This document shows, piece after piece, positions 680-60,906 of a stretch of 64,000 nucleotides of DNA; within the stretch, counting starts at the first letter, position 1; each line of letters begins with the position of its first letter. The notes under the pieces were generated by a model. That model was not told the origin of the DNA. It ran no database searches and saw only the letters and a program-made list of their open reading frames with translations. The translations under genes and the position numbers were made by a program. Source of the stretch: Paraspadella gotoi (lineage: Eukaryota; Animalia; Chaetognatha); contig CM119267.1 of the NCBI GenBank assembly GCA_051294375.1, positions 1,061,601 through 1,125,600 on the forward strand. Reading direction: 5' to 3'.

Positions 680-3600
680 AAATATCTCCCTCTCCCAGGT
701 CTACGACATCCAAGACATCAAAGACGATCTGTCCTCAACGGTGGAGGATTTCTCGACTGCCTCGTCGCTAGAGGCGTTGGCGTCGTCCGATCCGGCGTTG
801 AAAGAGCGCCTCGACTCTTCCTGCGTCGGCGTCTTTCTCAAACCGGAAGACGACGTGGTGCAGTCGACGGACGTTTCCACGGTCTCGTCTCCGCTCGTCG
901 ATGCGGCCCGGTCGCTTGCCTTTCTGCTCGGGATGCATGCAGCCGGTGAGGGCGACAAGGGATGATCGATGGGAAAGGGGAACATATGAAAGAATTTATA
1001 TTAAGAAATTGGTACAACCAATTTAAAAAAATGTATTCATTTTTTTCAATTTAAACATGCTATTGTGGCGAATCCTAAATTCGCCTCCCGTATAGCATGG
1101 TGAAACTCAGCTCGTCCCATTGACTTGGACAGCTAAGTACTCGTTCACCAACCATGAGTTCCGTTTCAATCCCCTCACTGTCACACTGGTTAAAGTGTGA
1201 TGGTGTTGGCATAAACACATCCAGTAACATGGGGTGGTCACTTCAGGTCCAAAGCCCTGTGCGCCAGCTGTCGGGAAATGCCTCACACCCTGGGCCTCAC
1301 GCATGTCCCCCCATTGCCATAAGTGGTGAGCCCTCCTATCGAACACACAACCGCTGTGTACCGTCGCTCACGTTGTTGCTTAAGGATATGCATTAAGGCG
1401 TAGTGAAAGTTACGTATGGAAATTCTAAAAGTAAATTATGAACAACATACGCATCAGTAAATATTAATTTGTAAAAAAAATTATTTTAAATGATTTTTTT
1501 TAAAAATTTTCGCAGTAGGCTATATTTATATATAGTACTATCCTTATAAAATCGAAAAATTTCAAAAATAGGCTTTTCTTAATTTTGATTGCAGATTGAA
1601 TTTCTGTCAAAAGTTGATAAAGAGAAAATATTAATTATTTTTAAAAATTCTTTCATTAAGTGGGTTAAAATTAAAAAAACTATATTTAATATATAAAAAG
1701 TTAATTTTCAGGCTAAAATATAGCTTTTTTTAATTTTTGACCCACTTAATGAAGGAATTTTTCAAAAAAGGGTTATATTTCTTTTTATCAACTTTTTATG
1801 ACAAATCCAAATCTGCAGAAAAAAAACTTTTAAAAAAAAACTGTTTTGAAATTTTAAACATTTATTGAATTAGTACTAGTATAAATATGGCCTACTGCGT
1901 AAATTTTAAAATTTATTATAAATTTTTTTTATGTATATATGTTCATTAGTATAATGTTGTTCGTTCCTCACTTTTAGAATTTTAATTAAAGTTAAATTTA
2001 GAAATTTTACTACGCCTTAATATGCATCCCACGCCTATGCCCTACTTCTCGCTCGCTCTCTGTGGCCATGAGTCAGTCTACTCTCAAGACAGTTACTCTG
2101 GCTTGGTCACCCCAGTGTGCTGTCTTGGGGGGGGGCATGTGTGGCGAATCATAAATTCTCATATCGGTCCGCCTCGCCACGAAAGCCCTTTTGTCGCGCT
2201 AGTCGATAGACGCGCGTTTATCAGAGTAAGAAAAACGAACAAAATAACATCGATAGATGAAAAAAAGAGAATCCAGGGGAAGCCGTCACGTGACCGGCCT
2301 CGACCAATGGGAGCCCGGCAAATCCCAAGCCGCTCCCTCCCTCATCCGGGTATACGAAAGCCTCATTCTTTTTTCGCGCTCATCTAGTTCGGTTGTTTCC
2401 TTACGGATTTCGCGTTTTTTCTTGATTTTTCACGATTTTCTCGTATTTCTACGTTCGAAACCCGCTCATTAGAAGTCATCAAGTAGAGACGAACGTTCGG
2501 ACAGGTCTGACAGCCGAAAACGTTCGGACATGTCTCTAAACGTAGAGAGGGACTGGAGATCCCTCGGGGCTTGAGAGGTCTAGGGAGACCGAGCGGTCTC
2601 GCCCCCGCCGCCACCTGCCCCCACCGACACCGCCTTCTCCCCCTTTACCGTGGTTTTCGGCGCCCGATTCCGTCGGTTTTGGGGACTCGGCCCGTACCAA
2701 CCGACACTTCCGTTGCCCGGCCGAGCGGTGGGGCTTAGTCCGAGGCGCCCTCTCTCGCTGCTCTCGGACCTAGTGGCGGCCGGTCTGATCATCCCCACTG
2801 CCGGAGACGAGACCAGAGGACTGGAGTCTGTCCTTACGACGATGATTTCGTCACTGAACAGCTTTAGGAAGGATTTCGACGATTTTCGCCGCGAGTCTAC
2901 AGCGGCGTTTCGACGCTTTGGGGCGGTGAGTTTTTCCCGCCAGATGGCGTAGTGGGGGTTTTAGCTCGTTTTTCAAACGCCTCGCCTCCCTCTTTTGTTT
3001 CTCCTTTATTTCTTTTCTTTTTTCGAATTATTCGATTTTTGGAATTTAGAATTTTTATTTCGTCTGATTTGATCGAAATATTTTTATTGAAATAACCGCT
3101 TTCCTCCGCCTCTTGGCATGGGGCTTTCGTGGCGAGGCGGACCGATATGAGAATTTTTAATTCCTTTATGGAATATTAATTCTATATCGGTTCCGCCTCG
3201 CCACGATCCCACCGTCCGCCCCTTTTTGTCTCCTACCATGTTTTTTCGTGGCTTTGGCGTGGCTTAGGGAAAGGGGGTTGGGGAAAAGGGAGGGGGGGGG
3301 TTCGGGAGTTTTTTCCGTTTAATTCTCGCGCTAATTTTTTACCGCTTACTTTTTTTTACATGTGACGATTCCATATCGGTCCGGTTTTTCTCTCCACTAC
3401 GCTTCCCCTCGTTTGACGAGTCTCGAATTCCTTCCATGCTGTTCCGACTCCAGTAGGCGGCCCCTCTCAGATCGGGCGCCCGCCTCGGACCGTCACACGG
3501 TCTCGCCTTACCCAGCGTCATCGATCCCACACAGTGCCGGATCCGGACGCCAAGTACTCCTCCGATTCGGCGGAGGAGGGAGAAGTTTCATCTTCGGATG

Positions 3601-6600
3601 ACGACGTCGGCAGTTTTCGACGGCTCCCTGCCCACGAGCAGGTCAGCGCCGGGTTCCAGGTTCGTTACATGTGGCATTCTCTTCGCTGCGTTGGGGAAGG
3701 GGTCTTCCTCACGGCCAACTGGAACTCGCTGGGACGCCCAGCGATCGCAGTAACGCCACTGATCGACGTCGCTTCTCCTCCGGAGTTCACCGCTCCGACG
3801 CCGGACACGTGCCTCTCCGCTCAATTCGAGTCGGCGTTTTCCAAAGGGAATAACGCGGCTACTCTCCGCTCCTTTCACGTGCGATGCAGGAGAACGGCGC
3901 TACCGCGCATGCCATCCTTACAGTTGTCGATGAGCTGCGCGGAATCAAGGAGGCTCTCCGTTCCGGCCCGTCCAGAAATGAGGTCAGCGCTGGCGTGACG
4001 CCCTTGCCGCCCGCTTCGCTGACGCGGCTCTTATTCAAGCGGCGTCCCTCAACCTTTCAGTCGCGAGAATCCGCCGCCAAATACTCGCTGTGGCGCCGCA
4101 GGATCTCCGCGCCACGCCTTTTCGCTCAGCGCCCACCGCATCTTCCTTTTTTGGTATTCAGGAAGCGCAGGTGGATTCGCGCGCTCTATTCGACGCTTCT
4201 ACGAAACGCGCTCGCGCCAAACCGCTGCCGACAAGCGCCCTCATTCCGCTCGAAGTCTTCCTTCAAGCGCAAGTGGACCAAGAAGTCTGTTCCCCGCAAC
4301 AAGTCGGGAGACGGGAAGGGCCGGGATTCGCATCCCGGCGAATGACTCGAAACGCCCCCCCTCGCGGTCGCCGCCTCGTCCGGCCGCCCAGGTTTTAGGC
4401 CTGGATCCACCCATGGACTCGAGTCTCGACACGGACCCTTCCACGCCGGCGCTTCTTCCGGAAGTCCCCGTCGGAGGTCGGCTTCGTCTCCTTCAACCCT
4501 TGGACGACGCTCGTTGGCCGAGACGTCGCCCATTCTCGATAACTTCTCGGTTTTCGCCTCGAGGGGGCGAAGCGGTTCCAGCACGCTTCCATCTTCCCTC
4601 GGACGCGACACCGTCTTTGGGGACCGAGACGCCTTGGTCGACGCGGAGATTGCGGCGGCTTTGGGGAGGACGCCATCGAGGTAGTCCCGGTTTCTCCGGG
4701 TTTCTTTTCCATGTTTTTCCTCGTTACGGAAGAAAGATGGAGGCTGGCGCCCGATTTTGAACTTAAAAAGAGCTCAACTCTCGTTCTTTCGCCGCCTTAT
4801 TTCCGGAGGGAAGGAGCCCCGGACGTACGAAGGATGTTTCGACGAGGCGATTGGGGTGCCTCGTAGACCTCCGAGATGCTTTTCTCCTTCTCCCGATCCA
4901 CGAGGATCATCGAAATCTTGCCGCTTCCTTGGAAGGGCCGCCTCTACCAGTACAGAGTCCTTCTTTTCGGCCTCTCGACGGGCCCTTGGATTTCGCCAAG
5001 ACGACGAGGCCCCTTTAGTGGCTTTGGCTCCGCCCACTGGGGATTCGATGCCTTTTTTCATGTAGACGGCATCTTGATCCTGGTTTCCTCGGCGGACGTT
5101 TGTCGACGAGCCACTCGGAAGGCGGTGTGGCTACTCAAGAAGGCGGGGTTCATCATCCACCTTCAGAGTCGAGCCCGTCTCCCTCTCAGAGCTTCGATTT
5201 CCTCGTTTCGTTTGGGACAGCTCTCCCACTCCATCGCTCTCCGGAGACGAAAATTACGACTCTTCGCCTCTGCGGAGAGTCTTTGCCAACGACCGCACAC
5301 GTGCTCGTCAGTGCCTTCAGCTCTGCGCTTTCGACGGCGGCGTCCTTGGCAGTACCGCTGCTACGCTGCAGGTTTTCGAGGATTCAACGAGACGTCTTTC
5401 GTGTCTACAAGTCGAAGAAGGATCTCGACCGCGTTGTTCCTCTCCCTCGCCGGCGATGGAGGAGCTGCGGTGGATCGCAGCCATCTCTCCAGACAGTGCT
5501 TCGCTCCGCTCGACGACCTCCTCCCGGAGGTCTGCACGCTGGAGGTGACGACGGATGCTTCGTCGCAGGGATGGGGGTTTCTCCATCAGGGCCAACTGTC
5601 GATGGGAACCTGGTCGACTGCGGATGCCCCTCTCCCTTTTCTTTGTGAAGGAGTTCACAGTTTTGAGGACCTTCCTCCAACGATTCGGAGCTTCCTTCCA
5701 CGGCACGTCCATCCTTGAAGACGTCAGCTTCGTCTCTCTCTCCTGCTTCGTCGGGGCTACAGCGGAGTCAATCTCTTCGGAGGAGATTCTCTTCACGGCC
5801 ACGGCGTCGAGGGGCCGCAAGGTGGCGGACTGGAAACTTCTTACGAGAGTTTTCCGCCAGATGGTCGACATTTTCGGTCTCCCCAGCATCGATTTTTTCG
5901 CGACTCCCCGGTCGGCTCAAGTTCCACGTCTTTCGCCTGGGAGGTGACGCTGGAGGCGGAGGGGAATAGACGCCTTGGCGCAACGCTGGGTCTCGACCTG
6001 GCTATCTCTTCCTCCCCCTCCTCTGCTGATGATGGTGATCCGCAAGCTAGAGAAGGCGAGGGCTCCCTTCTCCTGATCACCCCGTTTTGGCCGACTCAGA
6101 AGTGGTTCCAGAGCTTCCTTTTTTCCTTCGGTTTTGGTCGCGAGGCGCCTTCCGGCGCGGAAAACCTCGTCGTCGACCTCGTGTCCGGTCTTCCGCCTCC
6201 GCAAGCGGATCGCTTCAGGCTCGTCGTCTGGAGGTTTTTAAGGCGGTGCCACAACCTCTCCGACATCGACGACTCCACCTTCTCCGTCATCGTCGACAGC
6301 TGGAGAGGCTCTACCAGAGAGTGCTACGCCAGAGCTTGGAGTTCCTTCTGCGACCTCCTTCAGGATAGGGAGGTTCGAGAATCTCAAGCCTCTCTAGAGG
6401 ATGTTCTACGATATCTCGGTTTTTTTGTGCGGGAAGGGCCTCTCGTACAGCACGATCAACCTTCACAGGTCGGCCATATCAGCTGCTCTCCCCCCCCTGC
6501 GGGAGCGCCGGTTGGAGAGCATCTTTTGGTCCGGCGCCTTCTCAAGGGAGTTTCAGAGAGACGCCCTCCCTCACGTCGGACTTTCCCCTCGTGAATGCGG

Positions 6601-9600
6601 CCTCGGTTTCACGCATTCTCGACTCGGCGCCACTTCCGATCACGCCGAGGGATCTTCTACGACGCTCGCTCCTTCTCGTCGCTTTAAGCGTCAGCTCGTC
6701 GCCTCTCAGAGATCGTCTCTCTTCGTTGCGACGCGGGCTATCTTTCCTTAGCGGAGTTCACGTTCGTCTGGTTCCATCGACGCTCTCGAGGACGGACAGG
6801 GTCGGACACATGGGTCCGGCGTTCCGTCTCGATTCGCTGCCGCTCTCGGATCGTTGCCCGGTTCAGGCGCCGCGCATTTGGCTCTCTTCGTTCGGAATTG
6901 GCGCCGCCGCACGATTTTCTTTTCTGCACCCCCGCGCCGCCTTTTCGTCAACTCTCGACGCAGCGTTTCGCCTCCTTCTCAGGAGCTCTTTTTGGAGGCA
7001 GATGCTTCTGCGCCCCCGGGGTCGACACACGCTATGGCGGTTTCAGAAGCCTCGCTCGCGGCGTGGTTTCTCGGCGTCATCTTACGCGCGGGAGATTGGT
7101 CTGGAGCGCAGACCTTCTACCGTTTCTACTGCAGGACGTCGCGTGGGGCGCCCCTCCGGGACCTTCTGGGACGTTTGAGGCTTTACGTATACCCGGATGA
7201 GGAGGGAGCCGCTTGGATTTGCCGGGCTCCATTGGTCGAGGCCGGTCCGTGACGGCTTCCCCTGGATTCTTCTTTTTTTCATCTATCGATGTTATTTGTT
7301 TCGTTTTTTCTACTCTGATAAACGCGCGATCTATCGACTAGCGGCGGACAAAAGGGCTTTCGTGCGAGGCGACCGATATAGAATTAATATTCCATAAAGG
7401 AATTAAAAATTCGCCTCCCGTATAGCATGGTAAAACTCAGCTCGTCCCATTGGCTTGGACAACTAAGTATTCGTTCACCAACCGTGAGTTCCAGGTTCAA
7501 TCCCCACAGTCACGCTGGTTCGTGTGATGGTGTCGGCGTAAACACGACAGCTGTCGGGAGATGCCTCACACCCCGGGCATCACACATATCCCCCCGTTGC
7601 CATACTATCTTGCATAGGGCTTTGGACACTGGACAGTAGAGTGGAGTACTGGGGAACATAAATTGTATTGAATGACAACAAGGATATTTAGATGTGAGAT
7701 AGTATGATAAGGAATATAAAAAAATATTTTGCTTATATTATTTGGGGGAACGTATCATTAATTACAATATATTTATATAATATCCTTATAAAATCATTAA
7801 ATTTTTAAAAATTTTTTAAAATTTTTTATTAAAGATTCTGATTCTTCATAAAAAAGTTAGATCAAAAATATAAATATTTATTAAAATTTCAATGTCTTCA
7901 GCATTAAAAATAGGAAAAAAAAAGTTTAAATTCTCCATTTTTTATGCTTGTAGTAGAAACTATTATATGATGAAACGTTTGATCAGGTTTTCGCAGCTTT
8001 AACCTAAAAATATCATTAACATATTTTACAAAAGTTTTTCAGTTTTTTCGGCGAAATCCAAATTGTTCTTAAATTAAAAAAATATAATTTTGAAATTTTA
8101 TGATTTTTTATAATAAGGATATACTATAAAAAAAATTCAATTAATGATACTGTTATGGCAAATTCTTTTAAAAAGGGCTTAAATTATTTTTTATTATATA
8201 TACAAAGGCAAAAAAAACAATTGTTCCATCGCTCAATCTTTTCATCACTCCACCCTACGTGGACAGGGGTTGGTCCGCCTCGCCACGAAAAGAAGAAAAA
8301 AAGGAAAAAAAAACTATTATCCTTTTGTTTTATTTGACAGAACAAACTCGTTCTCATCCTCGATCCTCGGAAGAGAATCAGTGCCTCTCGTGGCTTAGGA
8401 CGAAAGCTTTCGCCGGCGGACTTCAACTCTTGCAGCCCAAGAATCCATTCGACGAGGAAAAAGGTCAGTTTTTATTAGGTATATATTAAGCTAAAAACCT
8501 CTTTTAAATTATCCCTCTTTACCTCCTCAAGGCGAATCCCGCCACGGATCCAGCGCCACCTCGCCGATGGGCGTGGCCGAATGCGCCTCTCATGCGGCGC
8601 CGACAGCGAGCGTCAAATTGGAAGACTCTCTTCCATCGCTGCTGGCGGCGTCGTCGTCGTTGACGGCGTCGACGCAGGAAGATGGAGGAGGGAAACCCGC
8701 CGACGCCGTTAGGATCTTTTTGCAGAGTCAGTTTAGAATTTGCGTAATGAAGAATGAGAAGGGTGTTGCGATATTCTTTCATACGCCGACACTCGCCCGA
8801 GAATTAGCGATACCTTTGCCTAGCATTTTAAAACTCCAAAGGTGTCTGGGGCCTCGTTTTGGTCCTCTTGATTCGCACAATTAAGCAAGACGGGTCGTCA
8901 AACCAGTTGTTAGAAAGAAAACATATCTGTGGGATTATTCACTTTCTAATTTCTATTTGGTGTGATGACAAACGATCGCACAATGCCCAATTCATTATGG
9001 TCTAACCTACTAGATACAACAAAATTGGCTAATTCAACTACTTACGTATTATTTGTACTTGTATTTGTTCCTATATATCGAGCAAATTTTTGTTATCTTC
9101 ATTACTTAATTAATTCTATTAGAAAAATATTGGCTAGAAGTGATGACAAAACATTTTTCTGTAATTTGATTTAAATTCATATAAAATCGTTCTCTTTATG
9201 AATACATCGGCGTTTTAACAAAACTTTAAGAAAGTGATATAGCAATATCATATAACATATTTATTTATTTATTATCATTTATTTATTATCGTATTCCATA
9301 TTTTAAAAATAAAAAATCTTTCAACTTACGAAACAAATTTGAAATTGAGAATAATTTGATGTTCAAACGGTCCAATATATAATCACTTAATCGTAATGAA
9401 AAAAAATGATTTCATTTAATTTTCACCTTTCTCTTTTATACTTTTCCTGAATTCCTTCAATAAAATTAAAATAAATTTCAATAGATTTGTCAAACGATTT
9501 CATAACTTCTCGATATTCATCATCAGTACATTGGTCAAAAGCTTCGGCTCGTCCGTTTGTTTCTTTCAACTTCTCATTTAAATTCTCAAGACTTATTTTA

Positions 9601-24600: not shown

Positions 24601-25057
24601 ACGGGTCGCCGCCCGGTGTGGGCCGGGTCATCGGTGAACTGGGCGAGGACGGTTGGGTCAGAGTTCAATGGGAAACCGGGAGCACCAACAGTTACAGGTC
24701 AGGAGGTCACTCTTTTCGCTTTTTATTCATTTTAAATTTTAGCCGCTTTCTTTTTATCCTTATTACCCTTTTCCCTCTTCTCCTTCCCTTCTCCATTTCT
24801 TTCCCTTTCCCTCTTCTCCTTTCCTCTTCTTCCCCATTTCTTTCCTTTCCCCTCTTCTCCTTCCCTTCTCCATTTCTTTTCCTTTCCCCTCTTCTCCTTC
24901 CCTTCTCCATTTCTTTTCCTTTCCCTCTTCTCCTTCCCTTCTCCATTTCTTTTCCTTTTCCCTCTTCTCCTTCCCTTCTCCATTTCTTTTCCTTTCCCCT
25001 CTCTCCCTTCCGTCCCCTTTCCCTCCCCTTTCTCTCTCCTTTCCCATCCTCCCCTTC

Positions 25058-25090
<33 letters not shown>

Positions 25091-37000: not shown

Positions 37001-40000
37001 AGTTCGGATTCCCTACCCAGGTAAAAGTCGAATACTTTTTTCTTCATTTTTATTTAATTGTTTTTCTTTTATTTTTTCTTTAATTTAATTAATTTAAATT
37101 GAACTAAGGATGAATCCTATGACCGCGAGCGTGATCGCGGCGACGTTAACGACTCCCGATGACGTCGCCCGTTCCTCCGACTTTCTCGACGCCGGCGCCA
37201 CTATTTCCTTCGTCTCGGCGCCGGACGCGACGCCGGTTCGCACCGGCGTCGACGACGGATCCGCGGAGGCGCTCGTCGCCCAATTGACGCCCAACGACGC
37301 GAGGGTGATCGTGGATCTTTTGAAGTTGGCCGTCGCCGGAAGAGTGGGATCCTCCGCGCAGGGCATCTTGTCCACCGCTTTGGCCGCCATCGGTGGGTGA
37401 GGGGAAGAGGGGGAGGATGAGGAAGAGGGGGAGGGTGAGTCTTCCTTTTATTTCTTCACGATTTTCATTCTCATTTTTTTTTTTTTTTTTTTTTTTTGAA
37501 AAAAGGCGGACGCAAGAAGTCAGTGGCTGACATGTTGATCGAACACTGCATCACCGAACTCGAAGACGTCGCCTCCGACTTTGAGTCTGGCGGAGATCCC
37601 ACGCTTCGAATCGCCCACGGTGCGTCTCTCTACCCGGTCACGCAAGAGAGCATCCATCCCTACACCTCGGCGGCGACTCAGAGCGGGAAAGTCAAGATTC
37701 CAGGTGAGGAAAACATTTTTAAGACTAGGTTATGGCAACAGTTTTCTCATAAAAGATATTATACCATTTTGATTGGAAAGCCGTGTGCTCTGGCAGTTAA
37801 TTGATTGACAGCTTACAGATTGTGGCTAATGGCTATGTTTTTATCTTGTAAGAGGGGTGGAGGACTTATACCACCATAGCCCGAGGAGGCAAGATAGCTT
37901 GTTTGTTGAATGAATTTTATGTTTTACATCAATTTTATTTTTGTTGTACCAATTTCATGAGTACATGTGGGATAAAATTAGAATAAAGGTGGGTGGTGTT
38001 TCTTGAGGTTGTCGACTTTTGAGGAGAGAGTCTTCCGAGGACCATCTACGTCTGTTGATCAATGTTAAGCCACCTTAAAGTAGAGACAGGTCCGTGATTT
38101 GTCACAGTTCTGCAAATTAGGTAGATTGTATGGCTATAATGAGTATTATATTAATGACGTCAACCTTATTCTTTTCGAATCAGGGGCTGAGGCGTTGAAG
38201 ATCGTCTTCGATCCTCGATGCTCGACTGAGCGACGTCAGGACGCGTTGACTATCATGGACGGAAAGGGAAGAACAGTCGCCGTTCGATCCGGCAAAGAAT
38301 TTTCAGATTGGAGTTCCGAGGTGAAAAATTACTTTCATGATTATTTTTATTACGATAATTAAATTAATAATTAATTGTACCACAAACAAACAAGACCACC
38401 GAATATGATATGTATAATACGACAATATGCAAATGAGATTAATAAACTTTATATCTTTTGTAGCGAATCACCTATTACTATATTTTATTTATCTTGCATC
38501 TTGTGTCTTCCCTTATATATGCTCTCCCTCCTCTTTAGCTCCGTGTGTTGGGCGACGAAATCCGTTGGACGTTCTCCTGCGATTCATCGTTCCAAGGATG
38601 GGGTTGGTCCTTCACCGCTTATCCCGTCACCTCCTCTTTCTCTTCTCCCTCTGATCTTCTCAACGATCGAAATGTTCTTTCTCGTCCATCGATCGATCTG
38701 GTCACGTGCCTCCTCGGCGCTATATTTTCCTTCGCCAAAAACGCCCCGACTTTTTCTCTTCGTCTCGCCGCCGCGTTGGCCTCTTGCTCTCAGTTGGGGG
38801 CGTTGTCGCCTTCGGACCGGATGTGGGCGTTGCGACGCTTGCGCAATCTCGTCAACACGACGGACGACGTCATGTCGGCGCTGAGGGATTGCACGGCGCC
38901 CCCGTACTCCACCGTCGCCGCCTCGCACGCCGCTGCCGCAGCCGCCACCGCTCCCCCACTCAACCCCGCCATCCTTTACTCCCCGTCGACGTCGCCGTAT
39001 GCGCCGCCATCCTACGAATCTGTCGTACCGCTCGTTCGTTCGCCGGCGCTGCCCGTCACGCCCGCCTCCGGTCTGACGGCGCTGGTGCAGTCCCTGCCGG
39101 AAATGCTGCTGCGTCAATTCGAGTACGAGGACCCAATTGTCAGGGGAGGGAAACATCTGCTGCACAGTCCCTTCTTCAAGGTCAGACTCGCTGTTTTCTT
39201 CTTAACCTTTTTCTTATTTTATTTTCTTCTTCTTCATCTCTTTTCTTTGCCTCATATAATCTTTGTTTTCTTCATCCTTTTTTCTCCTTTTCTTTTTTAT
39301 CTCTTTTCTCTTTCATCATTCTCTCGTCCGTTATTTTTCCTCCAAAGGTCCTCGTGGCTTTGGCCTGCGACCTTCAGCTCGACACGCTCTCACTCTGCAC
39401 GCCGGCGGAGACGGCGCACAAGTGGGCCTGGTTCAGGCGCTACTGCATGGCGCATCGCGTGGCGACGGCGCTGGAGAAGCGCCACGTCTTTCCGCAGGGA
39501 TTCCTAATTGACGTGAAGAGAAAGATTCAGGAGATTCAAGGTAAGGTCCCTTATCCTTAGACTTAATCTTATCCATAGTTGCGATTGATTTTCCAGTCTG
39601 GTGTTGATTCGTCCCTTTGTCAGTTTATACATTAATCTATCCAGAGGAGGAATTAGCTTGCCGTCCCATTCTCCCCTTGCTCTTCCTCTTTTTTCATCTT
39701 CTCGTTTCTACTCTTCGCCAAATATAGGATTTTTCCTCTTTCATCAAGCCTTCAATAGACCTCAGGCTATCCTATTTCCGATTTGAATGAGCAATTGCTA
39801 TTTATTTATTTATTTATTTATCATTTTATTTATTTAATACTTAGCTTTTATCACTAAATTGTGCCGTTCTATGATTCAGGCGTTGGGTTTCTTCCTCCAC
39901 AAGTCGATGCTTCCAAATCTCTGCGTCAAACGCACGAAAGCAACGAGGTCTTCAAGAAGGAACACGACGAGCAACTTCTGCTTTGGCTCAACCGTCGCCC

Positions 40001-43000
40001 AGAGGATTGGACTCTTTCGTGGGGAGGGAGCGGGACCATCTACGGCTGGGGTCACAACCACCGGGGCCAGCTGGGTGGCGTGGAAGGCGCTAAAGTTAGT
40101 CTCATCCTCATATTCCTCCTCCTCATACTCTACTTCTTCATTCTCCTTCTCCATTCTCCTCCTCCTCATCTTCTCCGTTCTTCTCCTCCTCTTCTCCTCC
40201 TTCTCATCTTCTCTATTCTCCTCCTCCTCATCTTCTCCATTCTCCTCCTCCTTATCTTCTCCATTCTCCTCCTCATCTTCTCCATTCTCCTCCTCCTCAT
40301 CTTCTCCTTCCCCCAGGTAAAGCTTCCGTTCAGCTGCGACGCGCTGGCGGGCGTTCGACCCGTGCAGCTCATCGGTGGAGAGCAGACCCTGTTCGCCGTC
40401 ACCGCTGATGGAAAGGTATGATTGGTCAGGAATGAGTGGTGGCCCATTATTTGCTTGTTGACTACCAAATCCATTGACAAAACAGGTTTACGCAACGGGC
40501 TACGGTGCGGGTGGACGATTGGGCGTCGGAGGAACTGATTCTGTGGCGACGCCGACTCTTTTGGAATCAATTCAGGTCTGTCGTTACCCAATCAACAATT
40601 TGTTCTCAGTCTTACGATGTGATTTATTATGTATTATTTATTATTAATGTTGTGGTGCATTAAATCTTATCATTTGAAAAATTAGCGATTATTTATTTAT
40701 TTACTTATTTTAGTTAACCGCTTATCTTTCTTTACTCCTTCTTCTTTTATCTTTCTTCCCCTTCGCTTCTCCTCATCCTCTTCCCCCCCCCCCAGCACGT
40801 GGTGATCAAGAGAGTGGCGGTGAACTCTGGCGGGAAACACTGCTTGGCTCTCTCCGCCGATGGAGAGGTCTACTCTTGGGGCGAAGCGGAGGACGCCAAG
40901 TTGGGCCACGGGAATCGGACGCCTTGCGATCGACCACGAGTCGTGGAGACGTTGCGAGGGAAGGAGATCGTCGACGTCGCCGCTGGGGGCGCTCACAGGT
41001 TTGGGTGTCGATCATAGTGATGAGCGTTTATTACGTTTATTACTGAAATATTCTTATCGGAGACTTCAAATGTATTTATTGTCATCATCCACCCAAATTA
41101 CACTTAGTGCTGCAACTGCTCCATTTACTTATTCTGTCCTAATTTTTTTTATTTTCCCCTTTTTCTTTACTATTTATTTTATCTGTTTCTTCCCTCCGCT
41201 CTCTTCCCTCCGCTCTCTTCCCTCCAGCGCGTGCATCAGCGCCGCTGGTGAGCTCTACACTTGGGGCAAGGGTCGCTACGGCCGATTGGGCCACGGGGAC
41301 TCGGAGGACCAGACAAGGCCCAAAGTGGTGGAGGCTTTGCGCGGGTTCCGTGTGGTGAGCGTGGCCTGCGGATCAGGCGACGCGCAGACCCTCTGCATCA
41401 CCGACGACGATTCCGTCTGGTCTTGGGGCGACGGAGACTACGGGAAGTTGGGACGAGGTGAGGATGCTTTTCATTATTTAAGTTGGGACGAGGTGAGGAT
41501 GCTTTTCATTATTTAAGTTGGGACGAGGTGAGGATGCTTTTCATTATTTAAGTTGGGACGAGGTGAGGATGCTTTTCATTATTTTCGCTCGGCTCGCTAT
41601 GACTTTGGTTTGCGGCTTTAACCGGGAGATAGCGACACGGAGCCCGAAACAAATGGCTGACGTGACGACGGGGAGCTATTCCTTATTTCGAAGTTTTGGT
41701 TTTGCCGATTGAAAAGAAATACATGTCAATAAGTGAGATTGTCCACGATATTGTCTCCATCACACGTTGACTTCGACAGGCGGGTCTGACGGATGCAAAA
41801 CCCCGATGAGGATCGAAACCCTGCAGGGACAAGGAATCGTCAAAGTCGAGTGCGGGAGTCAATTTTCCGGTGAGATTAGGGAAGAGGCCGAAGTGTGGAA
41901 CTTAGTGGAAATTGTCGAGATTGTAAAAATTATCTAAAGTGTAGAAAATGGTAAAGAGTGTCAAAAATAAGAGGAAAGTGTGGAACTTTGAAAAATTGTA
42001 GAAATTTTAAAAAAATTGTGGAAATTGAATGATCTATGGCAACAGCCTGTGATGCCCATTGGGATTGGGCATCTCACCGTTGGCTTTGGGGGCTTCCGAC
42101 CCTCAGTGATGCCTCCAGTCACTGGCGCGGTTACCCTAGGACGGTCTCGCTTTGCCAACGCAGAGGGAAGTCGTTAGGACTGTGGATGGAACACTACGCC
42201 TGGGATGGTGTGTTCCCCCTCTGAGCCAATGGATTTGGCTGAAGGATGGTGGACGTGAGGCGGTGTGAATATACCGCCACAGGTCATTAATTGACCCCTT
42301 CATGCCCAACCCAATCACCAGTGGCGCTCTCCAAGGACGGCGCCGTCTATACTTGGGGAAAAGGCGATTATCACCGCCTCGGTCACGGAACCGACGAACA
42401 CGTCCGTCGTCCGCGCAAAGTCCAAGCGTTGGGGGGCAAGCGGATCGTCTCCTTGGCAACGGGTTCGCTCCACTGCGTCGCCTGCACCGATTCGGGCGAC
42501 ATCTTCACATGGGGCGACAACGACGAGGGTCAACTGGGCGACGGATCCACCACGGCCATTCCGCGCCCGCGTCTCGTCTCCGCCCTTCAGGGCAAGAAGA
42601 TCAACAAGGTGGCCTGCGGTTCCGCCCACACCCTCGCCTGGTCAACTGCCCAACCCGTCTCGGCGGGGAAACTCCCGCTCGTCGTCCCTATGGAGTACAA
42701 TCTGTTGTCTCACATCTCGATTCCGGGTGAGATGGTTGGGGGGGAGGAGGAAGGGAGGATGATTAATGATGATGATGATGATGATTTGGGATAGAAAGGA
42801 GAAAAGCTATGTCTATGTTTGTGAAATTTTTTTAGCACAGAAAAACATTAAATATGTCGTTGAAGTATAAACCTTGAAAATTGAAATATTTTTCTTTCAA
42901 ATAAATACATAAATGCATTTCGTATTTATTATAATCTAATTATCGTATTAAAAGAATTTGATTTTAATTTTTCGTCTTTTTCCATCTTTCATAATTCTTA

Positions 43001-51900: not shown

Positions 51901-54900
51901 GTGGGTAGGAAAGTGTGTGATAAAGCTGGATATAAAGTTTCGACGGAATCGTGTAAGTGGAAATGAGTTTAAGTGGAAAAAACATAAGTCGCATTTACTA
52001 AATCTTTTTACTTATTTTAACCAATAAGTACTCTAATTAATCATAATTGGATGGATAGATTGAGTTCAAATTTTTGTGTGGGTAGAAAAAATGTGTATCG
52101 ATGCTTGATATATGATTTGGGGGAAACGATCAAGTGGAAATGAGTTTAAATGAAAAAAATATGAGGCACATTCACTTGTTTTACTTTTATTTTAACCCAT
52201 AATAGATTGAGATGAAATTTTGTGAGCTGGTAGGAAAGTGTGTGAAAAAGCTAGATATAAAGTTTTGACGGAATTGTGCCAGTGGAAATGAGTTTAAATG
52301 AAAACCTTAAGTCACATTTACTTGAAGCAGAAAAATGATACAAGTTAAAAAAATCCTAAAAGCATAAGGATCGTCGCAATTGCAAAGAGAGAGAGAGAGA
52401 GAGAGAGAGACAGTAAAATGAGCATAAGGATCGTCGCAATTCTATCATGTTGCTCCTCTCCACCACGCCAATGCTCTTTTGTTCCAGATGTCGTGTGTCC
52501 ACAAGAAAGACAAAAGAGAAAGCAGAAGGAGTAGACTCCTCCTCCTCCTGCTCCTCTCCTCCTCTTCCTCCTCTCAGCTCCATCTTTCGGATGCATCGGA
52601 AGGGAAAATCACTTTTTGTTTCACGACCACGTGTTCACTGGTTTTTCTAGGAAGTTATATTTTTGCGTTATTTTTTGCATTGTCTGCATTATTTTTGCAT
52701 TATTTTGGATTGTAAAATTTTTTGAATATTTTTCAGCGTTTCAGTTTTTCTGAATACTGGTTTTTTTTTTGCGAAATTTCTTTTCGTATTGTCGGTTTTG
52801 ATCCATCTTATGTCTGAGACTCGCGGATCAGAGTCGAGCCGCGCTTTTTAGCGGCGAAAGCGAGCGGGCACTTCGTCCTCTTCAAAGGGACTGGCCCAGG
52901 AGCCGTTCATGGACGTGAGCTGTCTCCTCCTCCTCCACCTCCCGGACCGGCTCCCGCATCTCCGCTCAGTAAGCGAGATCGGCCCGGTAGGGCGCCGCCG
53001 GGTTTCTCTTCGTCGCCGTCTGGGCGATCAAGAGATCGAATGCATCGTCTTATTCTTCGGGTATGGTGGCTTGGGGGCAGATAAGGTGCTTGGGAAGTCC
53101 CGGCTAGTAGCCTAGAAACGAATCAGCTCGAGTCATCCATCTGGTTTTTTCTATTGTGGCAACAACAGTTGGAGGCCTTTCAAAGGTCGATGCGTCTGGA
53201 GATGGACTCTTTTAAACGGTACGTTTATATTTTATGATTCGTTTGAATTTTTTGCCTTTGGCGTACATTACGTGAAATTTTTTCGAAATATTTTCGCTCC
53301 ACAATTCGACTTTGTTTGTTTTTCTTCTTGCCGCTCTCGTTACAGAGCATTGGCGTGGTGGAGAGGAGCAACATGATAGAATTTATGGTCTCTAGTGGAA
53401 CCGCGGGGATTCTTCATGGCTCTCTCCACCACGCCACCGTCCCTCCCGCCGTCCACCCCTGGCACCACCGGTGGTGGAGGGCGGCTTCGAAGAGTTGTTT
53501 TTGTCTTTTTGGTGTTCTCTTCTCTAATATTTTCTCGTTTTTATTTTTACATGTACACATCTTCGTGGCTCCTGGAATCTCACGTTATGTTGCTGTATTC
53601 TCCATCTTCGCTGATTTCGTTTCTAGACGTCATGCCCCTGCTGTATTTCCCGGGGTCGACCTTGCTACCCCGGCTTTCCCCAAGTCGGCGCCGACCTGTG
53701 TTCGGCCGAATGCTTCCTTATACGACTCACCAGACTTGGATGTTTCTGGTTCGGAGGAAGATGAGACTCGAGTCTATTTCTGATGCTACAGTTTTTGATA
53801 CCTTTTTTGATTGGACTTGTCAACAATGGAGAGAGTTCCGTTCTATTGACGGTGCGTGGCGAGCTCAAGAGGGATGGGAGCCTGGTCAAGGGCGCTCTGT
53901 ATTCGCTAGATGGTGATGGTGCTTCTCCACCAGAATTTGGACCTCCCGCAAAGACAGTTGCTTGTCTGCGCAGTTCGATGCTGTTGTAAAGACCGCAAAT
54001 CGGCCTCTATTTACAAACAAGCAGTGCGGTCCATGAGAGATGCTGGTGCCGTTGCGCACTCTGTATTGCATACAGCGGATGGATTGCGTCATATTTGTCA
54101 ATTCTCTCAGAGCTTCCGATGCGGATCCCGAGCTCATGGCTGATCTGGAGGCCTTGGCGGCCCCTCTCAAGGATCTGCGACATGTTGGCTTCCTCTTCAA
54201 CGCAGCCTTGGTTGAAGCTCGGCGTTCCATTATCCAGTCAGCTCCCAAAGAACTCAAACCCACTCTTTCGGATGCGGGTCCTTCGGCGGGGTTCTTTTTG
54301 GAAATCGCGCTACAGATGTTACTGCTGCGATCCACTCTTCTCTGTTCAAGAGTCAAGCCTCTCGACCTAAGACCTATTTCCAAGATTCTAGGAAGCGTTA
54401 CAACCCCAGTCCCAGGGACTTTCAGAGCTGGCCGCAAGTCTACTTCCGACCAAGCGTTCGGGAAAGGGGGAGTCGGGGGCGTCAAAGGACGCCAAGTGAC
54501 TCCTCGATGCTCCAGTACGGCCGTTGCCCTCGTCCGGCCCATCAGGTTTTTCAGACCTCGGATTTGTCTCAGGACTCGATTCTCGGTTCTCCGGCCCTTC
54601 TCCCCTCTGTTCCAGTGGGGGGCAGATTACGTTTTTTCCTTCCTTTTTGGAAGAAGTTGGTGGAAAAGGATTCCCCCGTTCTTCAGAACGTTCAGGGGTT
54701 TCGCATTTCGGGCGCAAAGAGGATCCCGGTCAGGATGCCAGTTCCTTCGGACGAGACCCTTCTTTTGGAGAGAGAGATTCTCTAGTCGACGCGGAGGTTA
54801 CTGCCGCATTGGAGAAGGGGGCTAATAGAGGAGGTCCCTCCGTCTCCGGGCTTCTTTTCGAAGATTTTTTTGGTCACAAAAAAGGACGGAGGTTGGAGAC

Positions 54901-57900
54901 CCATTTTGAACCTCAAGAGGCTCAACAAGGCTTTCATTTCCCCCCTTACTTTCGCATGGAGGGGGCTCAGGACGTCCGGAAGATGCTGCGACCAGGAGAT
55001 TGGGCAGCCTCGATCGATCTCCGCGATGCTTATCTCCATCTTCCTCTGCACGAGGACCATCGCAAGTTTTGCCGTTTTATTTGGAGAGGCAAGATCTACC
55101 AGTACAAGGTTCTGCCTTTCGGTCTTGCTACAGGCCCCTGGTTGTTTACCAAGACGACTCGCCCTCTGGTGGCTTGGCTACGTGCGAGAGGGATTCGATG
55201 TCTGTTCTACATCGACGATATTCTCATTCTGGGCACGTCCATGGAGGAGTGTCTTTCCAACACCCGAGTGGCCTACAACTTCTCAAGGATGCAGGCTTCG
55301 TCATTCACCCCAAGAAGTCAAGTTTAGTCCCTGCTCAGAGCTTCGAGTTTCTGGGTCTTCTGTGGGACGGGGCGCTTCATCAGGTTGCGCTTCCCAGCGG
55401 AAGATTTCCCTCTCAGGTCTCTGGCTTCGTCCCTATTAGAAGGGACCACTCCATCAGCCCGTCAGGTTCTTCAGCTCATGGGTCATGTGGCTGCAGCCAT
55501 CCCGCGTCTCCGGTTCTCCGTTGCAGATCGACGCGGATTCAACAGGACCTCAATCTTGTTTATCATTCGGAGAGGGATTTGGAGAGAAGGGTTCTCTTCT
55601 CGGAAGGCTGCGAAGGAGGAACTTCTTTGGATTTCGACGATCGATCCAGGGGTTTGCACGACGCCGATCGACGACCTTCTTCCGGAGATGTGCTCCTTGG
55701 AAGTGACGACAGATGCCTCCATGGAGGGTTGGGGCTTTCTGTTTCGCGGAGACCTTCACAAGGAGTTTTGGGAGGATGCGGTTTGCCCCTCTCCATATAA
55801 CTGTGAAGGAGTACATGGTACTACTCAAATTCCTGCGTTCCTTCGGAGCTCAAATTTGCGACAACAATCTTCTATGGAAGACGGGACAGTCTGGTGTCCC
55901 TCGCTTGTCTCCGGCGTTGTTGCAGCCGTTCGCCAGTTCTTCACGAGATTGTGAGAGAAGTCTCTTCTCTTGGCGGATTCTCAGCGATCCGGATTGTGGG
56001 TGTTCACATTCCCTCAGAGGAGAATTTGTGTTGCGGATGCTGCTTCCCGCGGAGAGCAGTTCAAGATTGGCACTTGGATCCTCAAGTTTTTCGACGGATC
56101 GTCAGGACCTTTGGTCCCCTCAGATCGACCTTTTCGCAACGAGTTCCTCTCGTCAGGTTCCTCGCTTCTTTTCATGGAAGATGGAAAAGGAAGCGGAGGC
56201 TCTCGATGCCCTCAGTCAAGTTGGAACTTCGAGCGGGCCTTTGTCTTTCCTCCCCTCCCTCTGATCCCTCGGGTGATCCTCAAGTTGAGGGAGGCTGTGG
56301 GGAGTTCCTTTTGGTAACTCCGTTTTGGCCAGCCCAGAAGTGGTTCCGTCTCTGCTGGATCTTCATGTGTTGGAGGCGCGACGCCTCCCTTGTCTGGGTG
56401 GAGGTGGTCGACCTGGCCTTGGACGACGTTATTCGTCGCTCCTAGATCGCCTCAAGTTGGTCGTCTGGAGGATTATCGGCGGCGCACGGCACCCTCAGAC
56501 GTCAGCGATTCAGCCTTCTCTCTTATTTCCAAGAGTTGGAGAGTCTCCACTGTTTCCCGTTACGAAAGGGCTTGGAAGTCCTTCGTCTCCTTCCTTCAAG
56601 GTCGGGACCTTCGAGGAGATCAAGCTTCTGTGAAGGATGTGCTGGATTATCTCGCCCATCTTAGTGACAACAAGTTGTCCTATAGCACTATCAATTTGCA
56701 TAGATCGGCGATTTCTGCGACTCTTCCTTTGGTGGAGGGTGCTCCTATTGGTCAGCACCCATTAGTTTGCCGTTTGCTCAAAGGAGTTTTTCAGCTACGG
56801 CCTCCTTCGCGCCGGATCTACCCAGCTTGGAGTGTGGCTGCGGTTTTGCGCGTTTTTGATGTGATGCCCTTACCGTTATCACCTTATGATATTTTACGCA
56901 AGACTACGTTTCTTCTTGCATTGGCTTCCGCTAGGCGACCTTCTGAATTGGTCTCCTTGCAATGTGGTCCAGACCACATGTTTTTGGTTGAGGACCACGT
57001 ACGTTTCGTGCCCTCCAGGCTTTCCAAGACGAATCGATTCGTCATCTTGGCCCTGTTTTTCGTTTGGATCGACTGACCGGTTCTGTTAGATGCCCGGTCC
57101 TGGCCTTGCGTTCCTGGTTGTCCGTCAGACAAGCTCTGCGGCCTCAGCACGATTTTCTCTTCTCTTCCCCTGCGCCGCCTCATGGACCTTTGTCTCTCCA
57201 GCGTTTTGCCGCCCTGATCAAGTCAGTCTTTAGAGATGCGGATATCGACGCGCCTCCTGGATCTACTCGCGCTATGGCAGTGTCGGAGGCCTTCGCTAAA
57301 GGAGTGGACTTGGATGTCATCCTTCGTGCTGGAGATTGGTCAGGCGCACAGACCTTCTTTCGTTTTTATTGTCGGGAGTCGGCTTGGGGCTACTCTCAGC
57401 GGGGTCTTGTGGATGAGTGATTTTCCTTCCGATGCATCCCGAAAGATGGAGCTGAGAGGAGGAAGAGGAGGAGAGGAGCAGAGGAGGAGGAGTCTACTCC
57501 TTCTGCTTTTCTCTTTTGTCTTTCTTGTGGACACACGACATCTGGAACAAAAGAGCATTGGCGTGGTGGAGAGGAGCCATGAAGAATCCCGGTTCCACTA
57601 GGAACCATAAATTGCAAAGAGAGAAAGAGAGAGAGGAGAGAGAGAGAGAGAGAAAAAGATAGAAAGAGAGAGAGTCCGAGATAAAAATTAGCGAATAAAA
57701 AGTTGTTATTTTACTCACAGAATAAAAATACTTAAAATACTTACAAAATACATAAAATTGATAAATTATTATTCCGATAACATTGTTTAATCACATGCAA
57801 TATATCTAGTTAGGCCTAATATCTAGTAAGGCGGGCCAAAATTGAACACTTTTTATAACTTCTAGTTCTCTTTAAATTTTTTTTTTCCTTTTACTACTAA

Positions 57901-59313
57901 ATCGATTTTCAATATAACTTTTTGAATTAGTTCATTGGGTTGTTGCACTGAAGCTTTTAAATATTTATTAATATATAATAATATATAAAGTATTGACGGA
58001 ATTGTGCCAGGGGAAATGAGTTTAGATGGAAAAAACATAAGTCACATTTACTTGAATCTTTAATAATAATGATTACTAATAAATGTTTTAATTAATTAAT
58101 GAATTAATTAATTAATTAATGTGAAAAAATGATGCAAGTTAAAAAAAATCTGAAAAGCATAAAGATCGTCGCAATTGCACAAAAAGAGAGAGAGAGAGAG
58201 TGAGTGAGAGAGAGAGAGAGAGAAGGAGACATAAAATAAAATAGAGGATATTTGTTTGTTTTGATAAAATGTAAACAAAACATATTTAATAACTGTCCTA
58301 ACCCAATTTTAAGGACATCGATGATGATAAGTTGAATATAAATTTAAAATTAATTATTAATATTAAAATTAATTAATTAATTAATTAATCGATTAATTAA
58401 TTAATTAATTATCGTAGGGCAGATCCGACATTGTTTGCTCAAACTTGTTAAGAATTTAAGTTTCGCCACACTATGTTATTATTAAGGCATTAATTCACCA
58501 TGGCGTATCCAAAGTCGGGGGCAAGATAGCCGATTTATCAAATCAATGCAAATGTATTTTTTATCGGAACGATTTTACAATATGAATCCATCCATCCGTC
58601 TCTCCTCCTCAGACCCCTCCTCCCCCAAAAGGGTCTTCATCAACGTGACTTCCTCCCATTTCATCCGCTGCATCTTGACTCGAACGATGAACGTCTTCCT
58701 CGTCTTCTTTCTCCTCATCCTCGATCTCCTCACAGGATTTCGTTATCGTTTTCTTCGTCGTCGTCTTCTTCGTCATCTCACGGAAAAAGGACTCGGCCGA
58801 TTCTATTACTATACGATGCAATATTCGGGCGCCACCGTCTGCGCCGCGCTCAAGATCCTCGCTCAACCTCGGCACGCCCCGGTTCTCGTCAACTGCTTCT
58901 ACGTGAGAATATAGAGGAATAAGATGTTTTATCTTTTGCCCTTTTGGCCCGTTTCCACCGACGCCGCTTTCCCCATCCTCCAGGGCAAAGATCGAACCGG
59001 TGTGGTCGCCGCTCTTGTCCTCCACATCCTCGGCCGAAGCCGTGCTGAGATCCGCGCCGACTTCCTGGCGTCGGAGCGCGCCCTCGACGCCACTCGCGAA
59101 GCCGACCGGAAGGATATGGGAGAGTACGAGGTGGTGCTGCCCGAGTGTATCCACCACGCCGCCGTCGAGGACATCGACGATGCGTTGGACTTTCTCGTCG
59201 AGCGTCATGGATCTGTGGAGGAATATCTCGATTGGATCGGGTTTGGAGAGAATTGGAGGAGGAGAATGAGGAAGACATTGGGGGAGGAAGAAGAGGGAGA
59301 AGGGGAGGAGTGA
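48940..59313 (+). CDS. PtpB/IphP-like tyrosine or phosphoinositide phosphatase (Y_phosphatase3 family); exons 48940-49098, 49385-49577, 58613-58902, 58984-59313
   Basis: NFR...FRSA, GIRTIVDLRSPLE, P-loop PVLVNCFY|GKDRTG (CX5R), IRADFLAS, HGSVEEYLDWIG. Splice phases are consistent. Confidence 0.87.
51255..51555. repeat. 18-bp minisatellite TTGACCAAATTATGTCAG inside the HINE-like element
   Basis: More than a dozen degenerate tandem units. Confidence 0.9.
52438..57613 (+). mobile_element. DIRS-type tyrosine-recombinase retrotransposon, family B, full length
   Basis: ITRs about 52452-52613 and 57417-57577, ICR 53344-53436. RT (WAASIDLRDAYLH, LPFGLATGPWLFTK, YIDD), RNase H (TTDASMEGWG), MT-like (PQIDLFAT, TPFWPAQKWF), YR ([28 protein letters not shown]). 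Empty site GATCGTCGCAATTGCA visible at about 52369. Confidence 0.95.
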
Positions 59314-59879: not shown

Positions 59880-60222
59880 GCGTTTTTATTAAAAAAAAAA
59901 ATTGAAATATGATTGAACTCGTAAAATTAGGCATCGCATTCGTGCATTTATCATTTTGCTATCGCAACATCGGGTTTTTATTTCTTTTTTTTTCTCAGGG
60001 GCTGCGTCTGCTGATTAGTTTATTTTTTGACAATGAAAATTTTTTTTTCTTTTTTTTTCAGAAACTGTAACTTTAATTTATAATTTATAAAATATAATTT
60101 TTCTTTCTGTTTATAAATTAATTTTCTTTTTTCAAATTTCATTTTTTTTAGTATAAAAATTTGTCGTCAATCCAGATATTTCTTATGCGATTGCGACGAT
60201 CCTTATGCTTTTAAGATTTTTT
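59612..60222 (-). repeat. Inverted partial copy of HINE-internal sequence
   Basis: Reverse complements of 58249-58292 (TTTGTTTGTTTTGATAAAATGTAAACAAAACATATTTAATAA) and of AAAAGCATAAGGATCGTCGCAA. Confidence 0.55.
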
Positions 60223-60906
60223 TTTCTTTTTCTATTTTCTATTGTTCATTTATTTATCTCTAATTATATGGATTATTTTTTTGTTTTTCGCTTTCTAATT
60301 TGACTCTCGTAGTTTCTTTTCTTCTCTTGTTCGCTCGTCTTTTTGTTTTTTCTTTTTTTTTTTTTGGTTCGCTAATTTGACACTCGTTGTCTTCTTTTCT
60401 GTTGTTCGTCTCTTGTTCGCCTTTTGTTCGCTCGTCTTTTTGTTCTTTTCTCTTAGTTGATTTAATTTTTTCCCTGAAGCCAATACTGAGGAGTTAATCT
60501 TTTTCATGATCGATTTGATGAGAAAATTTCGTTATTTCTTTCAATTCGCTTTTCATTATACATGTCTCATTCTAAAGATCCAATTCCATTAAATGTACCA
60601 ACTTACAAAATGTGCTAACTCGCTTAATGGATCTCTTTTTGTCAATTTTACGGTCCTTTTGTAATTTGTTACTAAAGTTTTTAAACGAAATAATCTGTGT
60701 TGGTAATTTTGGCGAATTGTTTTGGAGACAAATGGATATAAATGAATTTATTAAATATATTTCTATTTACCCCGATTTTCCAGATGTATAATTGCCGAAT
60801 TGCAAGTCGGCAACTTCTAACTTATATCTTTCTCGACTTAATTTCGTATTTATTTCTTTAAATATGGGACAACCCTAAATCAACTATGTCCGGCTTTAAA
60901 CTTTAA

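Follow-up and report, generated by a model that had tools for sequence, protein, structure and literature searches.

A 5' position of the ICR is a clade-wide architectural variant of DIRS1-like elements and not the property of a single family. We recognized this layout in element B, a DIRS1-like element in the window (the whole 64,000-nucleotide stretch of DNA analyzed here), where the ICR lies inside a predicted intron of gag, and found it again in a second element of the same window and in related loci. Comparison of these sequences makes it likely that the ICR-bearing gag intron is removed by splicing.

Element B and the position of its ICR

Self-comparison delimited element B as a DIRS1-like element of about 5.2 kb (52438..57613, plus strand, as are all of its features described below) with AATT at both ends. 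Its termini are inverted but non-identical repeats of about 175 bp, characteristic of DIRS1-like elements: the left ITR (52439-52613) is 96% identical to the right ITR (57416-57587) over 177 columns, and the latter continues into a right extension (57588-57613), so that the right end as a whole covers 57416..57613. An empty form of the targeted repeat unit, containing a single AATT, is located at 52368, 70 nt upstream of the element; this empty copy fixes the ends of element B and fits recombinase-mediated integration. The element ends in NTT and lacks a target-site duplication, with AATT at both ends and one AATT in the empty site. The junction core may be either the canonical 3 bp (AAT/ATT) or 4 bp, given that the fourth base can be target-derived. 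The target itself is a short repeat with a GA microsatellite at its end and is present several times nearby (52331-52441, 58125-58212 and 60181-60240). Split direct repeats, which would point to PAT-like or Ngaro elements, are not present: the ends are inverted, and the sole internal repeats are the two halves of the ICR.

The coding content is likewise that of a DIRS element. The pol region (54500..56550, extent from tblastn; frameshifted in the window copy) encodes a reverse transcriptase (RT) that matches the Pfam RVT_1 domain (E = 2.6e-16), followed by RNase H-like and MT-like regions, and groups with DIRS pol proteins. No Pfam match was obtained for an MT domain after the RNase H; MT-like motifs (ADxxSR, xFPP and PFW, as tabulated for DIRS) are found in the pol proteins of the clade and in the window frames. 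In place of an integrase, the element encodes a tyrosine recombinase (YR; 56438..57420) that overlaps the end of pol and matches Phage_int_SAM_1 at E = 2e-7, above the cut-off, while the match of its frame 56992-57420 to Phage_integrase (E = 5e-5) falls under the cut-off. The YR stop codon (57418-57420) lies within the right ITR, an overlap that an earlier reading of this DNA, made from the sequence alone, had described correctly.

That reading had also proposed that 53344..53436 is the reverse complement of the circle junction, and this is what we found. The left half (53344-53383) is identical at 40 of 40 positions to the reverse complement of the left end (52438-52477), and the right half (53380-53436) matches that of the right end (57559-57613) with 90% identity over 58 columns, each at E = 3e-14 within the window; the halves overlap on AATT, so that, as in DIRS1-like ICRs generally, the region is complementary to both ends. 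It is directly followed by a C-rich, CCCACC-like motif (53433..53450), as are canonical 3' ICRs. The ICR of element B lies 0.9 kb from the left end, and self-comparison of the element found no second internal match to either terminus, in agreement with the proposed absence of a 3' ICR. The usual, if not defining, layout, with the ICR between the YR gene and the right ITR, is therefore not that of element B. That the canonical location is 3', as the sequence-only reading assumed, is confirmed by the survey of Piednoel et al. 2011 (PMC3266345), where the ICR is behind the YR motif in all 28 curated DIRS1-like elements.

The same layout is seen in element A, a member of a second family (about 2155..7410, plus strand; approximately 70% alike to element B in RT DNA). 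Its ICR (3121..3206, plus strand) consists of 43 nt matching the left end at 95% and 41 nt matching the right end at 100%, and is located 195 nt behind a GTGAGT donor at 2926; this copy is too broken for the splice phase to be read. Thus, the 5' position that had been attributed to family B is real but not special to it. These observations also bear on the possibility that the layout is an accident of the window copy, through an assembly error, an inversion of the element body, or a small element nested in gag, which we consider extremely improbable and, indeed, largely refuted already. The window copy of element B does contain many indels and frameshifts, and in the near-identical contigs of four public runs, aligned over 52300-57700, gaps far outnumber substitutions (for example, 9 gaps and 2 substitutions in 588 nt), so that part of the frameshifts may be assembly noise, with noise and decay being inseparable. 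Nevertheless, the layout recurs in element A and in three independent contigs, contigs from the public runs span both the donor (52764-53337) and the acceptor (53457-54228) of element B, and the ICR matches the ends of its own element, with the flanking motif in the canonical orientation. The summed contig depth is severalfold higher over 53205-53566, which includes the ICR, and over the element ends than over most of the coding body; this excess could reflect non-autonomous derivatives or merely shared sequence, and is not a copy number.

Elsewhere in the window, exons with repeated RCC1-like motifs at approximately 24400-42600 may belong to a HERC2-like gene; inside it, on the minus strand, the ORFs at 32493-33610 resemble the C-terminal part of a non-LTR retrotransposon.

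Distribution of 5' and 3' ICRs among related elements

We collected 95 related loci: 80 metagenome stretches, the best of 462 confirmed ones, and a further 15 loci from genome contigs. Eight of these (L001-L007 and L065) are 50–64% alike to the query, and the remaining loci are 31–43% alike. In a pol tree (FastTree, 123 rows with L094 dropped, no bootstrap), elements A and B and the eight loci fall within one clade of 23 rows with an SH-like value of 97, although the use of an in-clade protein as the reference for projecting the rows can bias the tree towards this clade. All 22 loci with a 3' ICR identified by self-BLAST lie outside this clade.

ICR position was then scored blindly with a detector that combines an inverted repeat with the C-rich motif and needs no termini. 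In the 5' region, the detector found an ICR in five of the seven clade elements compared with one of 66 other DIRS elements, and in the 3' region, in none of two clade elements compared with 27 of 54 others. The two clade elements missed in the 5' region are contigs that apparently start behind the ICR. The sole 5' match outside the clade, in L078, lies in a tandem repeat. The C-rich motif follows the ICR in 14 of 18 canonical and in all five 5'-type elements, in the same orientation, which argues that the ICR module moved as a whole. L002, L004 and L065 lack termini, so the putative ICR was recognized in these loci by its shape and motif. The ICR centre of L065 coincides in alignment with that of element A (p = 0.003), and the right ITR of L065 starts about 30 nt past the YR stop. 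The locus that adjoins the clade on the pol tree, L052, carries an ICR-like repeat, identified by eye, at its 3' end, suggesting that the 5' position is derived, a direction that hinges on the root of the tree. The clade loci are few and related: the 5' ICR is represented by about four lineages and the TGA layout described below by about three.

Some further observations accompany the survey. By eye, all five 5'-type elements show a pyrimidine run followed by CATGT about 100–150 nt past the ICR, at 53545-53555 in element B, at 3352-3364 in element A, and also in L002, L004 and L065. Scans of IMG/VR gave no match, a PDB search returned generic RTs only, and the ESM Atlas yielded only LAP2alpha-type clusters (score 0.91, 11–22% of members), consistent with a DIRS Gag. 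The loci L081-L095 are DIRS elements in contigs of bacterial genome assemblies and most likely represent eukaryotic DNA in bins; among these, L086-L090 and L092 form a family in which about 1.7 kb separates the 3' ICR from the right ITR.

A predicted intron in gag and the expression of pol

In element B, the ICR is enclosed by a predicted 408-nt GT-AG intron of phase 2 (53219..53626; T content 0.39, stops in all three frames), 125 nt behind the GT donor and 190 nt ahead of the AG acceptor. The predicted first exon (52811..53218, GC content 0.57) begins with the ATG at 52811 and an Arg/Ser/Pro-rich stretch and contains frameshifts and stops in this copy. The predicted second exon (53627..54499, also frameshifted) encodes an acidic patch, an FFGN-like motif and a basic C-end, terminates at the TGA-C at 54497-54500, and is supported by tblastn with clade Gag proteins (E = 5e-5). 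Without splicing, the gag frame stops four codons past the split codon; the splice would join the exons in frame, into the acidic patch common to the Gags of the clade. The donor GTACGT starting at 53219 and the acceptor AG ending at 53626, both named in the sequence-only reading, are the top-scoring sites in the 400 nt preceding and the 260 nt following the ICR, respectively. The positions and the in-frame join thus hold, but, taken singly, neither motif scores significantly above dinucleotide-shuffled sequence (p = 0.25 and 0.46). The branch point proposed along with them did not withstand scrutiny: the usual distance from the branch A to the AG is about 18–40 nt, and the proposed A is located only 12 nt before the AG, which makes that assignment doubtful.

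The 53218/53627 joint is absent from the 15 of 33 contig joints listed for the four public runs, which is not evidence either way on splicing. A search for a spliced Gag protein returned 10 matches and 94 cluster representatives, and a first-exon-to-last join was clear in none of the N-termini examined (6 and 27, respectively). Several of these Gag proteins start with hydrophobic runs, as if read from the end of the intron, an observation that is suggestive only. Of the proposal that the ICR resides in a gag intron, the 5' location is directly observed, and the intron itself draws its support from the comparison of relatives rather than from spliced reads.

The most informative relative is L004, which is clean and retains the gag start. 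Only a three-exon model (242-472, 825-879 and 1252-2180) yields a full, open Gag of 404 codons, compared with 81 codons if unspliced, 107 with intron 2 kept, and 222, out of frame, with the 55-nt mini-exon skipped; the ICR-like repeat of this locus sits in intron 1. L004 and L002 differ by 10 indels in each of the two introns, mostly not multiples of 3, and the same tendency holds for the introns compared with L001. In contrast, the last gag exon of L004 and L002 differs by indels of multiples of 3 only, with 106 of 169 changes at third positions. The mini-exon shows no indel across L001, L002 and L004; no third-position bias was found in it. In L001 and L004, 43 of 73 changes in the 127 codons ahead of the first Met of the last exon fall at third positions (p = 7e-6), showing coding constraint, so that these codons are likely translated from an upstream start; in L005, 242 codons precede the first Met. 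Both introns of L065 join in phase, the first acceptor having been picked by frame, with the top-scoring acceptor elsewhere. GT donors end the upstream frame in elements A and B, L004 and L065.

These patterns weigh against an arrangement without splicing, in which the 5' ICR would occupy an untranslated spacer separating a short upstream ORF from a gag ORF with its own start. Such a spacer would account for the weak splice motifs of element B and for the fact that no spliced reads were seen, and the ICR itself would impose a non-coding stretch; moreover, base 53628 is T in other copies of the family, placing an ATG right behind the acceptor, outside the Gag frame of the window copy. However, the constrained codons ahead of the first Met, the donors at the end of the upstream frame, and a mini-exon that restores the frame between an AG and a GT are not what a spacer predicts, and we regard this alternative as unlikely. 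Overall, the comparative evidence for splicing is strong for the clade and moderate for the copy of element B, so that splicing of gag is the likely interpretation.

The relatives also delimit what the intron can explain. A second gag intron, without an ICR, is kept in L001, L002, L004 and L065 over 15–20% divergence. In L065 (1692-1813) and L007 (approximately 245-384), it apparently occupies a shared position behind the acidic patch, and in L001, L002 and L004, it precedes the patch, so that intron positions vary within the clade; element B has only one predicted intron. Retention of an ICR-free intron implies that the position of the ICR alone cannot explain why introns are kept, and that a further mechanism must shield the template from splicing. 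Probably, the template pool escapes splicing altogether, with the ICR being at most one safeguard. A real intron could, in principle, merely tune expression, for example, the level of Gag, or reflect a separate unspliced pool, with the ICR located there as the only non-coding place left and no sorting of RNAs. The second intron, likewise kept, is compatible with this scenario, as are the separate RNA pools of BARE, which are defined by promoter and end structure (PMC3735527). Yet, an RNA that loses intron 1 loses the ICR, without which DIRS-1 cannot finish transposition (PMC7192593), and the sole predicted intron of element B is the one that carries the ICR; we find this scenario improbable.

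In seven of the eight clade loci, which represent about three lineages, gag ends in a single TGA that is in frame with pol and 8–31 codons ahead of the pol match. The TGA is followed by C, a leaky stop context, in five loci, and in six, there is no ATG between the gag TGA and the conserved start of pol. Not counting five loci in which the frame remains open up to the contig start, a long same-frame ORF upstream of pol was found in only three of the 82 other loci. In elements A and B, gag likewise ends in TGA-C, with the frame to pol unreadable in these noisy copies. This layout suggests that a Gag-Pol protein is produced in the clade by TGA read-through, in which case Pol probably depends on the same spliced mRNA as Gag.

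Whether the canonical 3' ICRs might also be intronic was assessed in 18 canonical loci. Around the 3' ICR, the combined p values were 0.056 for donors and 0.057 for acceptors; the sense strand gave the better score for donors in 15 of 18 loci (p = 0.002) and for acceptors in 11 of 18. Strong acceptor-like sites of 10–15 bits occur 54–84 nt behind the canonical 3' ICR in L014, L024, L037, L064 and L077. Some canonical ICRs may reside in 3'-UTR introns, but this is not established.

A proposed replication scheme and its relation to known systems

In line with the sequence-only reading, we propose, with reasonable confidence, a scheme in which an intronic 5' ICR distinguishes two RNAs: the spliced mRNA would give rise to Gag and, by predicted UGA read-through, to Gag-Pol, and the unspliced RNA would serve as the template. 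In this scheme, the ICR, which is 5' and single in element B, would have moved as a whole module, with the C-rich motif in the same orientation, from the usual 3' place, a direction suggested by the tree. Gag would require splicing because the unspliced frame stops just past the donor, consistent with the indel and codon patterns of the relatives. Pol would have no start of its own and, as in the relatives, would be read through the gag TGA. The spliced mRNA, devoid of the ICR, would thus encode both products, and the unspliced RNA would retain the ICR and encode only a peptide of about 140 residues. An RT made from ICR-less RNA would have to work in trans on the unspliced template, in which the ICR would be copied last, near the end of first-strand synthesis, rather than first. 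The ends would be rebuilt on the ICR, and the YR would integrate the circle at an ATT core, as in the DIRS-1 model, which the target core fits. Experimental tests of the DIRS life cycle are, to our knowledge, limited to a single element. In DIRS-1 of Dictyostelium (Malicki et al. 2020, PMC7192593), the RT is able to work in trans, and the ICR is indispensable once the first strand has been synthesized: without it, cDNA is made and transposition remains unfinished. By analogy, only unspliced RNA should yield new copies. The sharing of the layout by a clade, the probable dependence of Pol on the spliced mRNA, and the ICR-free second intron had escaped the sequence-only reading.

An extended version of this scheme, which we consider about evenly balanced between true and false, envisages a thoroughly rewired clade. 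All enzymes would come from the spliced, ICR-less mRNA. The genome would be a nearly non-coding unspliced RNA, distinguished by the intronic ICR as the last part to be copied; replication would be strictly trans-acting and would include an inherent control for full-length cDNA. Canonical 3' ICRs may in some cases be intronic as well, and the ICR would then have moved as part of an intron.

Retroelements normally lose introns. Retention of gag introns in a clade, with the end-repair template concealed in one of them, would be a clean case of discrimination between mRNA and genome. The clade also demonstrates that an ICR can be located far from the 3' end, and its members would be misread by annotation that presupposes a 3' ICR and a gag without introns. 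The TcDirs1 paper reportedly describes an unusual domain order. We encountered no DIRS element with an ICR that is 5' or intronic, with a gag intron, or with read-through from gag to pol within the accessible parts of the open literature, including PMC9210276, PMC3783388, PMC6681497, PMC2996953, PMC8226300 and bioRxiv 2021.04.08.439009; Repbase, Dfam, Poulter and Goodwin 2005, Poulter and Butler 2015, the TcDirs1 paper and the supplements of PMC9210276 are outside that scope and could hold a precedent.

Element B resembles the DIRS1-like elements described by Piednoel et al. 2011 in its ITRs with a right extension, ends in ATT and length of about 5.2 kb, in its gag, pol with RT, RH and MT-like regions, and overlapping YR, and in ICR halves of about 40 and 57 nt that follow the same order and overlap on AAT (PMC3266345). 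Unlike all 28 of those elements, it carries the ICR ahead of most of gag (PMC3266345), and the word "intron" is absent from the main text of that study. The ICR of DIRS-1 is, similarly, complementary to both ends in the same order, but it is located near the right end, and no natural gag intron was found in the accessible text on that element (PMC7192593). Outside DIRS, separation of translation and replication RNA pools by splicing has been described for BARE (PMC3735527) and for plant Ty1/Copia elements such as EVD (PMC5580714), which are LTR elements where spliced RNA gives Gag only and full-length RNA gives Pol. Unlike in BARE and EVD, the spliced RNA of the present clade would make both, and the intron would carry an essential replication signal. 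In retroviruses, the packaging signal lies downstream of the major splice donor, so that splicing removes it and marks the unspliced RNA as the genome, and Pol is produced by read-through of the gag-pol stop on unspliced RNA that encodes Gag-Pol. In the clade described here, by contrast, the unspliced RNA would encode only a short, truncated peptide.
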